From the IMG/VR virus record IMGVR_UViG_643348547_000009: a DNA stretch of 15,806 nt; one strand, written 5' to 3'. Positions 1,462-14,013 of this stretch are shown piece after piece. Positions within the stretch are counted from its first letter, which is position 1, and each line of letters begins with the position of its first letter. This DNA is from a virus (Duplodnaviria; Heunggongvirae; Uroviricota; Caudoviricetes). The position numbers and the translations under genes were made by a program. Under the pieces are notes generated by a model. That model ran no database searches. It was given only the letters and a program-made list of their open reading frames with translations, and had not been told where the DNA came from.

Positions 1462-1584
1462 ATATGTCCTTTTATCACTATATCAAGACAAACCATTGAT
1501 TTAATTAAATAATCTTCACTGCAAAAAGTGCCAAAAATCGCAAATTGACTACACCATTAACTACACCGTTCGGTGCACCGTATG

Positions 1585-8904: not shown

Positions 8905-8925
8905 AAAAAGCCGGATTGCTCCGGC
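8905..8925 (-). terminator. Candidate rho-independent terminator after the perC-like gene
   Basis: On the minus strand, GCCGGA-gcaa-TCCGGC (6 bp stem, tetraloop) followed by TTTTTGTCATGTTTTG, starting 7 nt after the perC-like stop. Confidence 0.5.
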
Positions 8926-8932
8926 TGTGTGA

Positions 8933-9205
8933 TTATCTGTCCTGGTAATTTCGCCATATTTCATCACCAGCACCATCCATACCCATTTCGGCATAAGTGC
9001 GATCGACCGCCTTTTTCAGGTCTCCGTAATTATCCGGCGGCTCCGGTGGCCTCTGTGCCTTCCTGGAACATTCCAGCCGTCGCATCGTGATGTGATGCCG
9101 TTCCTTGTCTGTCTCCACCAGTTGCATGACTTCACCCCATCGCGCCGACGCTCTCCGGTAAAAGCCTTTCGCCTCCAGTTCTTCCGCTATGCGGTCATGT
9201 ACCAT
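8933..9205 (-). CDS. PerC-family transcriptional regulator-like protein (90 aa)
   Basis: N-terminal pattern MVHDRIAEELEAKGFYRRASARW matches my recollection of PerC-family proteins; strong Shine-Dalgarno (GAGGGGGG); last gene before the head module. Confidence 0.55.
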   Translation of the reverse strand: MVHDRIAEELEAKGFYRRASARWGEVMQLVETDKERHHITMRRLECSRKAQRPPEPPDNYGDLKKAVDRTYAEMGMDGAGDEIWRNYQDR

Positions 9206-9214
9206 CGCCCCCCC

Positions 9215-9625
9215 TCAGAACGGAATATCATCACCGTAAGGGTCATCGCCTCCCGCTGGTGGCTGATTACCCTGTGTGCCTGTGGTCTTGCGTCGGCTCC
9301 CACCAGGTCGCGCCGTTCTGGCACTGATTACGCTGTCTGCAATAACCTGCCAGCCCTGCCGCGTTTCGCCGTTCTGGCCTGTCCACTGGCTTACCTGCAT
9401 GTTACCCGCCACGCTCACCAGCTCGCCTTTGTGGTGTTTTGCCAGTGCGTCGGCCTGTCTGCCAAACGCCAGGACGGATAACCACATCGTCGCCTGTCCG
9501 TCATCTGCCTGATTGCACGGCAGGGGGACCGCCATGCTTGCCATAGCCATTTGTGTGCCCTTGCTGGTGGTCTTTAACTGCGGGTCAGCCACCAGCCGCC
9601 CGTAAGCGGCTATCTGTGCTGTCAT
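9215..9625 (-). CDS. ssb: Single-stranded DNA-binding protein (136 aa)
   Basis: OB-fold-like N-terminal region alignable with E. coli SSB, a Gly/Pro/Gln-rich linker, and the acidic C-terminal tip DDIPF. Confidence 0.8.
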   Translation of the reverse strand: MTAQIAAYGRLVADPQLKTTSKGTQMAMASMAVPLPCNQADDGQATMWLSVLAFGRQADALAKHHKGELVSVAGNMQVSQWTGQNGETRQGWQVIADSVISARTARPGGSRRKTTGTQGNQPPAGGDDPYGDDIPF

Positions 9626-9879
9626 GATTCCACCTCTCCGGTTTTAACGTTGATGGTTGTTACCTGTTCCGCTTCGGCAATCTCCCGTTCCGTCAGCGTG
9701 GCAAAGTTTGCCGCCGCCGTGGTCATGAATGCGCTTATCAGGTCGGGATGTGCTTTCGCGTATCCTTCCCCCGTGTTGCGGTCGATGATTTTTATCGCCA
9801 CTCTCAGCCAGTGCTCTGTAAGGTCAATGGCGCGGTTATGCTGCTTCTTCTGATTATTAAGTTTTCCTGATGTGCGCAT
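9622..9879 (-). CDS. Hypothetical 85 aa protein between the ori and ssb
   Basis: ATG at 9879 with a GAGGGGG Shine-Dalgarno upstream; stop overlaps the ssb start (ATGA). Function unknown. Confidence 0.5.
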   Translation of the reverse strand: MRTSGKLNNQKKQHNRAIDLTEHWLRVAIKIIDRNTGEGYAKAHPDLISAFMTTAAANFATLTEREIAEAEQVTTINVKTGEVES

Positions 9880-9928
9880 TTTTATTTTTACCCCCTCGTT
9901 TAAAAAGTTTTGAGTTGTGCCTCCCCTT

Positions 9929-10154
9929 GTCTACCTTATCTACCTTACTGGCTCTCATGCCAGTAATGGCGCGGCTTTCAGCGGGGTAGAGTGCTTTTAT
10001 CCACTATCTACCCCGTATCTACCTCCCTGTCTGATTCAGGTAAAATCAGGTAGAGAGGGTAGATAGTAGGTAGACAGTGAAAAAAGGCTGTCTACCTAAG
10101 TTAATATACTGAATTAAATGTATTTTTCTTTACTCAGGTAGACAGGGTAGACAG
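9929..10154. repeat. Candidate replication origin: about 11 iterons with core GGTAGA / TCTACC in both orientations, plus an AT-rich stretch
   Basis: TCTACC at 9931, 9940, 10007, 10018 and 10091; GGTAGA at 9985, 10049, 10058, 10069, 10138 and 10147. AT-rich segment at about 10100-10130. Located immediately 3' of the primase gene. Confidence 0.65.
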
Positions 10155-10167
10155 CCATTGCAAAAAA

Positions 10168-11916
10168 TTATAAAAACGCGTCGCAATCGTCTGTTGTTAT
10201 TGCGTTAGTCTGCGTTACTCCCTTAACTTTCCGCGTAATATATTCATGTCCGTAAACTTTCGCGGCTGGCTTCATAGCCTTGCCAAAGTCATTTACGTTT
10301 AGCGGTTTGCTCCTGCCTGCGTATGCCATAAACGCCAGATAGACGCGGTAAAGGCTGTTTCTGGTCGTGTACTTCACTGAATCGCCACCGCCACCCATCA
10401 TCAGGCCGCGCGCTTCCTCCAGAAAATTCAGGAACTGGCAAAACTCAATAACCGGATCCGTCTGTTGCTTTATTGCCAGTGCTTCATCACCGTCACGCTG
10501 TTCCAGTAGTAAAGCCCGTGCCTTCTCAGGGTCGGTAAAGTTCGCCAGCAAGCGGCGGATAATGACAGGGATTTCAGCCGCGATCTTTTCCGGTAGCTCC
10601 CTGTCTTTTTCTGCCTCGCTTACGATATTGTCGAAGCGGAAAATAACCCGACGACGTGACACGCCTCCGGCCCGTTCGGTGAATATCATCGGGTTGTTAT
10701 TGGTCGCCAGCACCACCGCCCTGATTACCGTAGTGAAACGCTTTTCATATTTCGGGTTGATTTCCACGGGGTCGCCGCCCGTGATTTTCTTGATGCCCGT
10801 GCCTTCGCCTGTATATTTCGGCTGGTCTGCCAGGACGATAAGACGACTCCCGACAACCTGCGCACGCCCACCAGCATCATCAAGCGATGTCATTTCCGCG
10901 CTTACCGTGTTTTGTTTCCCCGCTAAAAGGCTGGCGATGTGGGTGAATGTACTTTTGCCGCTCCCGCCGTCTCCGGTGGCCTCAATAAACATCTGCCAGT
11001 CGTACCGGTTCGCCATAATCATGTACAGCGCGGCACATATACGCATCATCTTGCGCGAGTCTTTTCCGGCTGCGTGCTCAAGCCATTTATGAAAGTTTGG
11101 CGCGTTATCGCGGATGTTCTCCCCTGGTGCTGGTGGCGTGTACTCAATGCCGTTGTTCGTGGTGATCCAGTTCTCCGGCGTGTGCGGGGAAAATTCCCCC
11201 GTTTTCAGGTCAAGCGCACCATTGGCGAACGGCAGCAAATCGCCGGACGGCTCGCCCATTGGTTCGGCAATAACTTTTAACGCTTCCACGGCGTTATTGA
11301 TTACGCGCTTGCTGAAAGTGGCCCTGTGCTCTGAATAGATCGCCACCATTTCGCGGCTAAGTTCCATTGTGCTGACCGGACACCATACCCCGCCGCGCCA
11401 TACGTGAACGATTTCACTTTCCGGATGCACACAAACGCCATCAAATCGACCAGCAAGCATCTGTGCGCGCTCACTGTCTGCCATTTGTGCCAGTTGCGTA
11501 TTTTTCTGCTCCGGCATGGTAAGCCCTGCGGCAATATTTTCACGCTCAGCATTCAGATAGCGCCGCCAGTTTTCACACTTCTGGACGTGCATTCCTTCGG
11601 GGTAAAAATTTGCGTCCTGAATATCTGCCGCCGCCAGCTTCTGACCAATCTTTTTGGTCTCCACCAAATCCAGTTCTCCGGCCTGGTACAGCCTTACGCG
11701 TTTTTTTCCATCCGGAACAATTTTCAGTGCATCAAGTTCGGCAAGCTGATTTGGCCCAAGCCACACAGGCGGCACATTATCGCCGGATGCGGGGCCATCC
11801 TGCTCCTGCCATTGTTTCGCGTGCGACCAGGCATCACTACCCGCGAAAATAATTACCTCTGTGTCTTTGTGTTTTATTCCGCGTGGCTGTTTTTTTACGT
11901 TCGGTGCCAGTTTCAT
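10168..11916 (-). CDS. Phage/plasmid primase-helicase, P4 family (582 aa)
   Basis: Walker A motif GDGGSGKST in the C-terminal NTPase domain and a primase-like N-terminal half; ATG at 11916 with an AGGGG Shine-Dalgarno; followed by the iteron region. Confidence 0.88.
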   Translation of the reverse strand: MKLAPNVKKQPRGIKHKDTEVIIFAGSDAWSHAKQWQEQDGPASGDNVPPVWLGPNQLAELDALKIVPDGKKRVRLYQAGELDLVETKKIGQKLAAADIQDANFYPEGMHVQKCENWRRYLNAERENIAAGLTMPEQKNTQLAQMADSERAQMLAGRFDGVCVHPESEIVHVWRGGVWCPVSTMELSREMVAIYSEHRATFSKRVINNAVEALKVIAEPMGEPSGDLLPFANGALDLKTGEFSPHTPENWITTNNGIEYTPPAPGENIRDNAPNFHKWLEHAAGKDSRKMMRICAALYMIMANRYDWQMFIEATGDGGSGKSTFTHIASLLAGKQNTVSAEMTSLDDAGGRAQVVGSRLIVLADQPKYTGEGTGIKKITGGDPVEINPKYEKRFTTVIRAVVLATNNNPMIFTERAGGVSRRRVIFRFDNIVSEAEKDRELPEKIAAEIPVIIRRLLANFTDPEKARALLLEQRDGDEALAIKQQTDPVIEFCQFLNFLEEARGLMMGGGGDSVKYTTRNSLYRVYLAFMAYAGRSKPLNVNDFGKAMKPAAKVYGHEYITRKVKGVTQTNAITTDDCDAFL

Positions 11917-12445: not shown

Positions 12446-12902
12446 GACTCCCCCCCTGGCGAATACGGGCGACAAAAATAAGATGTGCGTGCGGCAGCTG
12501 TGCACGTGCTTCGCGCTCAGTGGCAGCGGTAACGGTGAATATTGCAATACTGTCTGTCAGGCACTGCATAAAGCGCCAGACAAAATAAGGGCGTGCGAAT
12601 ACAGCCATGTGAAAGGCTCCCAGATGAATTTTAAGGAGTCTCGCTACTACGCTGCTAAACATGGTGGCGAGACGTAACAGGGTTAGCAGACTGGTCATCT
12701 GGAAACCAGCGAGCACAAAGGCTCCCCCGTTACGCCCCGCCATAATGCGGGTATGGGTAGGTTTACGGACACAAAAAAACCGCTTATCGGATGTGGGCGG
12801 CTGTCCGCCAGATGTATTCAGGCTGCTAAACCCGGTCGCCATGTGGGCGACGGGGGAAGCATACAGCCCCGTGATAATTTTTTGCAAGCGGTTTTTACGC
12901 AT
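12438..12902 (-). CDS. Icd-like (P4 cell-division-inhibitor family) domain protein, copy 1; full ORF is 154 aa, and an internal start at 12608 would give 56 aa
   Basis: C-terminal WRF...ATEREARAQ...FVARIRQGGSHA is paralogous to the C-terminus of copy 2. The ATG at 12902 has an AGGGG Shine-Dalgarno and overlaps the copy 2 stop; the ATG at 12608 has a GGGAG Shine-Dalgarno. Confidence 0.45.
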   Translation of the reverse strand: MRKNRLQKIITGLYASPVAHMATGFSSLNTSGGQPPTSDKRFFCVRKPTHTRIMAGRNGGAFVLAGFQMTSLLTLLRLATMFSSVVARLLKIHLGAFHMAVFARPYFVWRFMQCLTDSIAIFTVTAATEREARAQLPHAHLIFVARIRQGGSHA

Positions 12903-13098
12903 GATGTGACCCCTGACGAATACGGGCGGCGAATACCATCACGCAGCCAGCCGGGGATTGCTGGCGTGCCTCCTGTTCGCTGGTGGCCTCAATGGTAATC
13001 ACGCGCGGTTGTGCCGTGCTCAGGGCGATAAAACGCCAGATGTATTTATTCAGGTTGTGCGAATCCCGCCCTTGCGGGTGTGTGGTATGATTTAACAT
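12895..13098 (-). CDS. Icd-like small protein, copy 2 (67 aa)
   Basis: ATG at 13098 with GAGG 5 nt upstream; ...KYIWRF...ATSEQEARQQ...FAARIRQGSHHA. The long upstream in-frame extension (353 aa ORF) is Cys/Arg-rich and antisense to plus-strand genes, so it is treated as non-coding. Confidence 0.5.
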   Translation of the reverse strand: MLNHTTHPQGRDSHNLNKYIWRFIALSTAQPRVITIEATSEQEARQQSPAGCVMVFAARIRQGSHHA

Positions 13099-13192
13099 AG
13101 CTACCTCGATACTTTCGCTATCGTTGGTGGTTAGAAGCCCCGTTACTGCTCCTACAGTGCGGGGTTTCGTCGTTTCTACACCTTGCCTTAAT

Positions 13193-13249
13193 AAGGTGTT
13201 GAACACCAATTTAAATCGAGGTGTTAAACACGTCAAGTGTTGAACACTT
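13193..13249. promoter_or_regulatory. Three palindromic operator-like sites GTGTT-N-AACAC in the divergent control region
   Basis: GGTGTTgAACACC at 13195-13207, GTGTTaAACAC at 13221-13231, and the perfect 15 bp site AAGTGTTgAACACTT at 13235-13249; centres are spaced 25 and 16 bp apart. Confidence 0.55.
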
Positions 13250-13268
13250 ATTTTTTTTCCTGCATACT
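13240..13268 (+). promoter_or_regulatory. Candidate sigma70 promoter for the plus-strand RHH gene, overlapping operator 3
   Basis: TTGAAC at 13240-13245, a 17 bp spacer containing a T8 run, and CATACT at 13263-13268, about 30 nt upstream of the ATG at 13298. Confidence 0.3.
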
Positions 13269-13297
13269 GCATTTGTTTTTTATGAAGGGTGCTCAAC

Positions 13298-13477
13298 ATG
13301 GCGACAAAAGCAGTAAACGCAAAATCACAAACAGTTGCGGCAAGGGTTCCACATGAAGTTATGAACAATGTTGAGGCGGTAAAAATGCCCGGCGAAAGTA
13401 CAGGGCAGTTTGTTACAGCTGCATTAAAGCGGGAAGTTGAATACCGCCAGCGTCGCAAGGCCAAAGAATCAGAATAA
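13298..13477 (+). CDS. Small ribbon-helix-helix-like DNA-binding protein (59 aa), candidate island regulator
   Basis: ATG at 13298 (the ORF track starts at an upstream GTG at 13289); AAGGG 9 nt upstream. The pattern ARVPHEVMNNVEAV...GESTGQFVTAALKREV fits a beta-strand, helix, helix (Arc/CopG-like) layout. Confidence 0.5.
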   Translation: MATKAVNAKSQTVAARVPHEVMNNVEAVKMPGESTGQFVTAALKREVEYRQRRKAKESE

Positions 13478-13534
13478 TCACTATCAGCGCCGTGGCGTGA
13501 GGTACTCCGGCGCATTGCTTTACAGGTCAGTACT

Positions 13535-13744
13535 ATGAGCAAAAAACACCGATCAGCAGATGAGATTTTTGCAGAACAACGAAGATTGCTTTTGCAAAGT
13601 ATCATTTCACGCCAGCAAGAGAAGGCGCGAGCTAAACAAATGCCACCAAATACAGAACCAGCGCCTACAAGATTTGCGCTTGATGACTTTCTCGATAAAC
13701 ACCCCAGGGTAATGAAAGCAAACAAAAACCGCCCACCAGGCTGA
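13535..13744 (+). CDS. Hypothetical 69 aa basic protein, second gene of the plus-strand module
   Basis: ATG at 13535 with a weak Shine-Dalgarno; co-directional with the RHH gene and followed by a strong terminator; no family recognised. Confidence 0.35.
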   Translation: MSKKHRSADEIFAEQRRLLLQSIISRQQEKARAKQMPPNTEPAPTRFALDDFLDKHPRVMKANKNRPPG

Positions 13745-13839
13745 TCACATTGCCCACCAGCCTGATAGCGGCTATCATCCCCGTGCTTATGTTTGAGATC
13801 ACACACACAAACGGCGCAGCGGGTTATCTGTTCAGAAAG

Positions 13840-13870
13840 GCGGCTCCATTTCGGGGCCGCTTTTTTTATT
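13840..13870 (+). terminator. Rho-independent terminator of the plus-strand module
   Basis: GCGGCTCC-atttc-GGGGCCGC (8 bp stem with one G-U pair) followed by TTTTTTTATT. Confidence 0.6.
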
Positions 13871-14013
13871 CCTGAAAAACCCCAATTTTGTTGTTTTTCA
13901 GTTTCACCAGGGCGAACGAATCCCCGCCCACGTTCTGGCGTATATTCAATCTTCATGGTTATAGCTCTGTGTTCAGATGATTGATGTGTGGCGGCTGCGT
14001 GCCGCCAGCGTGA

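Follow-up and report, generated by a model that had tools for sequence, protein, structure and literature searches.

[quoted passage not shown] Within the tip the proline and the phenylalanine are the most conserved residues, and both a proline-to-serine mutation and deletion of the tip abolish the binding (PMC10018359). The DNA analysed here, a 15,806-nt stretch of a Caudoviricetes record (IMG/VR IMGVR_UViG_643348547_000009) that is referred to as the window throughout, encodes a short protein with the host-like ending DDIPF among the genes of an apparent phage satellite. The question raised by this locus is whether the protein is a genuine SSB and, if so, whether the satellite would use the host-like tip to draw on the replication and repair proteins of its host, as the original prediction had proposed along with competition with the host SSB, or whether the tip serves some other end.

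The element that carries the ssb gene

The window opens with phoQ (positions 1-1461), which is followed by a run of minus-strand island genes coding, in this order, for TerL, TerS, an HNH protein, a connector, a head closure protein, a portal, an S78 protease, a major capsid protein, PerC, the SSB, the product of orf85, a P4-family primase-helicase, DUF4222, AlpA and a tyrosine integrase. In E. coli CE10, a 97%-identical element is located between phoQ and roxA and is bordered on both sides by a 75-nt imperfect direct repeat, the two copies of which lie 14,256 bp apart (positions 2644-2718 and 16900-16974 of the CE10 locus, L001). The core of the same repeat is found at the phoQ-proximal end of the island in the window, and the island spans ~14.3 kb between the att repeats. 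No tail or lysis families are present in the annotation or the Pfam context of the island, and its gene content, with int, alpA, a primase-helicase and capsid and packaging genes, agrees with the criteria published for capsid-forming PICIs (cf-PICIs). By its genes, the element is a capsid-forming PICI-type phage satellite, and the description of the SSB as island-encoded is upheld by the CE10 repeat, the insertion between phoQ and roxA and the cf-PICI-type gene set. For the prototype cf-PICI, EcCIEDL933, it has been shown that a helper phage induces the island and that the island is transferred with nothing but tails from the helper (10.1101/2022.09.08.507074).

The ssb gene and the replication module

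The ssb translation starts with MTAQ and closes with the C-terminal stretch GGDDPYGDDIPF, after which a TGA stop codon follows; the N-terminal stretch of the protein is MTAQIAAYGRLV. The ATG of ssb shares bases with the stop codon of the 85-aa ORF upstream, orf85, in the sequence ATGA (9622-9625), an overlap that suggests translational coupling of the two genes, and a Shine-Dalgarno-like stretch, GGAGAGGTGG, is located 5-14 nt 5′ of the start codon. The product of orf85 gave no match in the Pfam and NCBIfam scans, and the gene is found 5′ of ssb in every island with the identical SSB. In the DUF927-type islands a different protein of 180-257 aa, without a precomputed Pfam match, is encoded at the same overlapping position.

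On the other side of ssb, the perC gene follows closely, and orf85, ssb and perC form a tightly packed gene run. The ssb-perC pair is seen again in many related islands, beside replicases of either the D5_N or the DUF927 type and sometimes with a ProQ/FinO-like gene between the two (loci L036-L039 and L043-L048), and it looks like a portable cassette. The terminator-like hairpin beyond perC may mark the point where the transcript of the replication module ends. The coordinates of all these features are collected in Table 1.

Table 1 Features of the island in the window, with the evidence on which each assignment is based.
Feature	Position	Strand	Description and evidence
att repeat core, phoQ-proximal island end	1548..1568	+	CE10 repeat; core occurs once in the window
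Terminator-like hairpin	8909..8926	-	just 3′ of perC; consensus scan alone, weak evidence
perC	8933..9205	-	PerC-family regulator; Pfam PerC, E = 2.7e-43; 9 nt 3′ of ssb
ssb	9215..9625	-	136-aa SSB, stop codon counted; Pfam, TIGR00621, phrog_44, RefSeq identity
DDIPF	9218-9232	-	last five residues of the SSB
Acidic tip DDPYGDDIPF, residues 127-136	9218..9247	-	read from translation
Linker ARPGGSRRKTTGTQGNQPPAGG, ~residues 105-126	9248..9313	-	short, disordered
OB-fold core, residues 1-104	9314..9625	-	AlphaFold2, Foldseek
orf85	9622..9879	-	85-aa ORF; phrog_1231 (unknown function); stop overlaps ssb start
Iteron field, origin-like	9928..10153		9 x GGTAGAYA in both orientations, AT-rich core
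P4-family primase-helicase, island replicase	10168..11916	-	Pfam D5_N, DUF5906 and Pox_D5; TIGR01613 primase_Cterm above cut-off

Between the primase-helicase gene and orf85-ssb, the motif GGTAGAYA occurs nine times against 0.38 matches expected, with all nine confined to 226 bp, and the GC content of this iteron field, which has its AT-rich core at ~10098-10130, falls to 0.41. The field has the look of a classical PICI origin and is probably the replication origin of the island. Since ssb is located near the replicase gene, ~300 bp downstream of it with the nine iterons in between, and just past the likely origin, the gene is a part of the replication module. In Gram-negative PICIs, SSB together with Primase and DUF5906 makes up the replication category, which is co-located with mapped origins (PMC10111431). 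The island protein is 100% identical to WP_000126632.1 of CE10, which is annotated as an SSB in RefSeq; the two do not differ in sequence, and as in other Gram-negative PICIs the gene is placed beside a primase/DUF5906 gene and the origin.

Family assignment and predicted fold

The assignment of the protein to the SSB family is consistent across profile collections. Pfam PF00436 is matched with E = 1.3e-16 and 61 bits (cut-off 26), residues 5-99 corresponding to positions 4-101 of the 104 in the profile; TIGR00621 is matched with 60.1 bits (cut-off 53.95) and the SSB family phrog_44 with E = 6.7e-41. When the sequence is searched against the PDB, 29 of the 30 matches are SSB entries, the best being from Thermus (5e-13) and Thermotoga (1e-10), with E. 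coli SSB at 1e-5. The Thermus and Thermotoga proteins (2FXQ, 2CWA and 1Z9F) are hence the closest solved structures by sequence, and the alignment with Thermus SSB runs through the acidic tail with its PF end, although each chain of the Thermus SSBs contains two OB domains and their hosts are unrelated.

The AlphaFold2 model, a monomer calculated from a shallow alignment of 36 sequences with at least 77% identity, contains β-strands at residues 3-11, 16-19, 25-35, 45-54, 69-82 and 88-101 and a helix at residues 55-62. This order is that of the OB fold, a five-stranded β-barrel whose strands 3 and 4 are separated by a helix. The core is predicted with confidence, its pLDDT ranging from 72 to 92 when taken by blocks of ten residues. 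In a Foldseek search of the PDB with the model, all 50 matches listed are bacterial SSBs with a probability of 1.00, and the target-normalised TM scores across these matches lie between 0.67 and 0.81, with the exception of a two-domain Thermus entry, and are ~0.8 for the top matches. The family thresholds, the predicted OB fold and the fact that the Foldseek matches listed are SSBs throughout support the original prediction of an SSB, and the structure prediction, where a missing OB fold would have spoken against it, contains one. On these grounds of sequence and model the gene encodes a bona fide bacterial-type SSB.

The alignment with E. coli SSB (PDB 1EQQ, 1EYG) that had been proposed as a check shows shared features as well as differences. 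The OB fold, the disordered linker and the tip are shared between the two proteins, and W48, F54 and W81 of the island SSB, which are invariant in its close relatives, occupy the alignment columns of W54, F60 and W88 in E. coli SSB, so that of the four aromatic residues with which the latter contacts ssDNA three are kept. The cores, however, are just 25% identical, the fourth aromatic residue, W40, is replaced by C37, the tetramer-interface His55 is replaced by a leucine, and the island protein has a shorter L23 loop and a total length of 136 residues compared to 178 in E. coli SSB. The 25% identity, together with a score of 24.5 bits for the enterobacterial host-type model NF006533 against a cut-off of 260, rules out a captured or recent copy of the host ssb gene. 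The host-type NCBIfam models are all missed widely, and the protein represents a separate SSB lineage.

Distribution of the island SSB

The identical protein forms a large database cluster with 297 member sequences on 577 contigs and is indexed in the assembly collection with 1,477 blocks, in which the order int, AlpA, DUF4222, D5_N, orf85, SSB, PerC and packaging genes is constant. Islands with the identical SSB occupy one of two places in the chromosome, either phoQ-roxA or cspD-clpS, and those at cspD-clpS combine the same SSB with a different integrase. DNA related to ssb and annotated as SSB is present in 1,536 of the 5,426 complete E. coli genomes (28%), with up to six copies per genome. 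A 73%-identical homologue occurs in classical capsid-less PICI-type islands, where it is located downstream of a DUF927 replicase and is followed by a ProQ/FinO-like gene and then by PerC. Across 34 species-representative Enterobacterales genomes, an integrase is found 8-10 kb upstream at most loci, AlpA and a downstream PerC are both frequent, and the capsid module is shared by sequence similarity at just three loci. By these comparisons, the island SSB belongs to a short-linker SSB clade of integrase/AlpA/primase islands in Enterobacterales. Among 50,697 phage records, no relative exceeds 36% identity, which rules out a loan from the helper phage, and because a close phage relative is missing from these records, the clade appears to be satellite-associated, that is, confined to satellites rather than phages.

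The wide occurrence of the gene also bears on whether it has a present role at all. In a near-identical island of Shigella flexneri SFBU1023, an in-frame deletion has left just 25 codons from the start of ssb, fused to the C-terminal portion of perC (L035 10001-10162), from which it follows that ssb is dispensable for keeping the integrated island, and truncated SSB copies are also found among the database matches. Both observations would agree with a dispensable passenger or a decaying gene, but the identical protein is retained at full length in the 1,477 blocks, relatives are spread through the E. coli genomes counted above, conservation is strong in both the OB core and the tip, and in the window an intact reading frame follows a good ribosome-binding site. 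We consider it extremely improbable that the gene is without a present role. As a separate observation, the capsid gene of the SFBU1023 island is a shortened ORF of 291 aa, which suggests that this particular island is a decaying element.

The C-terminal tip and linker

Beyond the OB-fold core the chain is predicted to be disordered, with a pLDDT below 50 over residues 107-131 in the AlphaFold2 model, and the translation ends in an acidic Pro-Phe tip. A disordered linker followed by such a tip (the tip as defined in PMC10018359) is the C-terminal arrangement of an SSB. The last five residues are the same as those at the end of E. coli SSB, and the likeness extends to an aromatic residue at position -7, which is Y130 in the island SSB and F171 in the E. 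coli protein. When 35 close relatives are compared with the window protein, the OB core is 87% identical and the linker 57%, but the final ten residues reach 92%, and D128, P129, D132, I134 and F136 among them are invariant. The same relatives have two or three alternative linkers, with indels, which all lead into the same PYGD(D/G/N/E)IPF tip. A tip that is the best-conserved part of the protein, behind linkers that have been swapped, points to selection that acts on the tip and leaves the linker free to change. The proposed equivalence of DDIPF with the tip of E. coli SSB is hereby confirmed, and in a bona fide SSB whose relatives retain the tip the match is not due to chance.

Selection on the tip is also supported at the level of 50%-identity clusters, where an acidic stretch with a terminal phenylalanine, or a close PF-like variant of it, is present in 70 of 120 near-full-length relatives (cluster representatives with a length of at least 115 aa), and many of the others look truncated. 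The tips in other genera include DDEAPF and DDETPF, which are found in many of them, and DDQIPF, as well as DDDF or HEDDF, which are devoid of the Ile-Pro pair. Since the tip has drifted in other genera, a host-identical tip is not obligatory for the clade, and the exact host motif is, by these sequences, typical of the Escherichia branch; the divergence might reflect selective use of partners. In the satellite SSBs of Rosenbergiella, Enterobacter, Klebsiella and Pluralibacter (L003-L007, L032) the ends are HEDDF or (P/L)YDDDF, without Ile-Pro, except in the Pluralibacter one, which ends in PPFDGL.

The acidic, Phe-terminated tail of phage T7 gp2.5 binds the polymerase and the helicase of the phage itself, and the island tip could in a similar manner chiefly recruit the island primase-helicase and not host proteins. 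The location of ssb and the replicase gene in one module would agree with such a function, as would the DDDF and HEDDF tails of some clade members, which without their Ile-Pro are nearer to the T7-type tail than to the host tip. However, near-identical DDIPF tips occur beside the unrelated D5_N and DUF927 replicases, and this independence of the tip from the type of replicase speaks for a host partner that stays the same and less for a tip that has co-evolved with a protein of the island. In the window protein, moreover, the host motif is reproduced exactly over the last five positions, and the two roles are compatible with each other. Recruitment of the island primase-helicase as the chief task of the tip is for these reasons unlikely, and the recruitment of host proteins is preferred here.

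The presence of DDIPF is not in itself a peculiarity of the island. Relatives of E. coli SSB are encoded on plasmids, in at least 5,000 records, and by phages, in 1,454 records, and the motif is shared by all three E. coli mobile-element SSBs that were translated, one from an IncF plasmid and two from phages. The IncF plasmid SSB (WP_000290834.1, pHB42-2) resembles the island SSB in its residence on an E. coli mobile element and in its end, EDYGFSDDIPF, but its core is ~80% identical to the host SSB, it has 175 residues with a long linker, and its function is in conjugative ssDNA transfer. The SSBs of the Escherichia phages IME_EC2 (Murrayvirus) and vB-Eco-KMB41 are phage-encoded and end in DFDDDIPF, but they are derivatives of the host SSB, to which they are 65-92% identical. 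Retention of the host tip looks normal for the SSBs of E. coli mobile elements, as far as these translations indicate, and the plasmid and phage SSBs with DDIPF are conventionally replication and ssDNA-protection factors. The noteworthiness that had been implied for the motif does not survive this comparison, the more so as the protein is annotated and widespread; the island SSB is a very common and mechanistically conventional protein.

The linker of the island SSB departs from its host counterpart, with ~22 residues, four of them basic, compared to 56 uncharged residues in E. coli SSB. The linkers of bacterial SSBs are reported to be 25-125 aa long and not highly charged, and they have no part in partner binding, although they are needed for cooperative ssDNA binding (PMC10018359), and the stimulation of PriA requires the Gly-rich part of the linker (PMC9087215). 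With a charged linker of only ~22 residues, the island SSB may leave some of the partners that it binds incompletely activated, and its cooperativity on ssDNA may be lower.

Proposed role of the island SSB

The role that we regard as probable, with rather high confidence, is that of a functional SSB of a cf-PICI-type replication module, which coats ssDNA and recruits host partners through its tip. Upon induction of the island by a helper phage, the co-oriented primase-helicase, orf85, ssb and perC genes would be expressed, the primase-helicase would open the adjoining iteron origin, and the island SSB would cover the single strands exposed there. The DDPYGDDIPF tip on its short flexible linker could then dock into the SSB-tip pockets of Pol III chi, DnaG, PriA, ExoI, RecQ and others, and the host enzymes of replication, restart and repair would thereby be tethered to replicate and process the island DNA, while the additional SSB would meet the surge in the demand for ssDNA binding. 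The ssDNA binding, the oligomeric state, the binding of host partners, the timing of expression and any requirement in replication are properties that we infer for the protein. For the binding of host partners by the tip, the identity of the motif and its conservation are suggestive, and the co-option of host SSB partners fits both the pattern of a best-conserved tip behind swapped linkers and the occurrence of one SSB clade beside two unrelated replicases. The searchable literature yielded no experiment on the island SSB; PICI SSBs appear in it solely by categorisation as a replication gene (PMC10111431), the cf-PICI papers do not mention the SSB, and the cf-PICI study mutated packaging genes only (10.1101/2022.09.08.507074).

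Competition with the host SSB, the other effect that the original prediction had considered, would be conceivable. It could even be the main mode of action, in which case the island SSB would titrate ExoI or PriA or displace the host or helper SSB from ssDNA. Instead of supporting the replication of the island, it would then interfere with the replication of the helper phage, or defence systems would be modulated or triggered by it. According to the proposal of a 2026 preprint, the ssDNA metabolism that depends on ExoI is perturbed by an SSB-like phage protein with the tip FDDDIPF, and the DRT10 defence system is triggered; both the apparent association of the clade with satellites and the short charged linker, which could permit partner binding without stimulation, would be compatible with a similar activity in the island. 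Direct support for it is lacking, however, and the location next to the replicase and the origin is the classical position of a replication-module gene, in line with the conventional functions of the plasmid and phage SSBs that have the same tip. We therefore judge a mainly competitive action to be quite improbable. Similarly little credence is given to the notion that the protein represents a satellite-restricted, minimal-linker SSB lineage, carried together with perC as a cassette next to replicases that can be exchanged, whose tip chiefly hijacks or titrates host SSB partners such as ExoI, PriA or Pol III chi; if true, such a hijacking SSB would be directed against the helper phage as a weapon or would modulate defence systems that sense SSB, and would not be a simple replication accessory.

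With recruitment of host partners in a replication module as the preferred role, the analysis bears out that satellites of the cf-PICI type encode an SSB of their own beside the replicase and the origin, which matters little beyond correct annotation. The tip nevertheless offers a clean genetic handle on the replication of Gram-negative PICIs, either by deletion or by a P135S replacement. The apparent confinement of the clade to satellites and the drift of the tip in other genera are both mildly interesting, as either could mean selective use of partners.

Other features of the island

The GC content at positions 9150-9600, the region of ssb, is 0.60-0.61 compared to 0.41-0.54 around it, which hints at another origin of the gene or at a composition-driven bias. 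Two plus-strand antisense ORFs across ssb, at 9092-9481 and 9276-9512, are taken here to have arisen as a side effect of the high GC content of the coding strand. A member of the SSB clade is also carried by several Klebsiella and Enterobacter "plasmids" of 10-23 kb (H50, H61-H66), which may be excised circular satellites that have been deposited as plasmids.

In the regulatory region of the island, a C4 antisense RNA (Rfam RF01695) is found on the minus strand at 12660-12747, where its 72.7 bits exceed the gathering score of 45. Its presence indicates a P4-like RNA immunity, and Icd-like ORFs are located in the same region. An unbroken minus-strand ORF of 353 aa at 12895-13956 has no precomputed Pfam match in a related island, and the region that it spans is annotated in CE10 as several small genes on both strands (Icd-like fragments and YlcI/YnfO); the long ORF may be spurious or a fusion.
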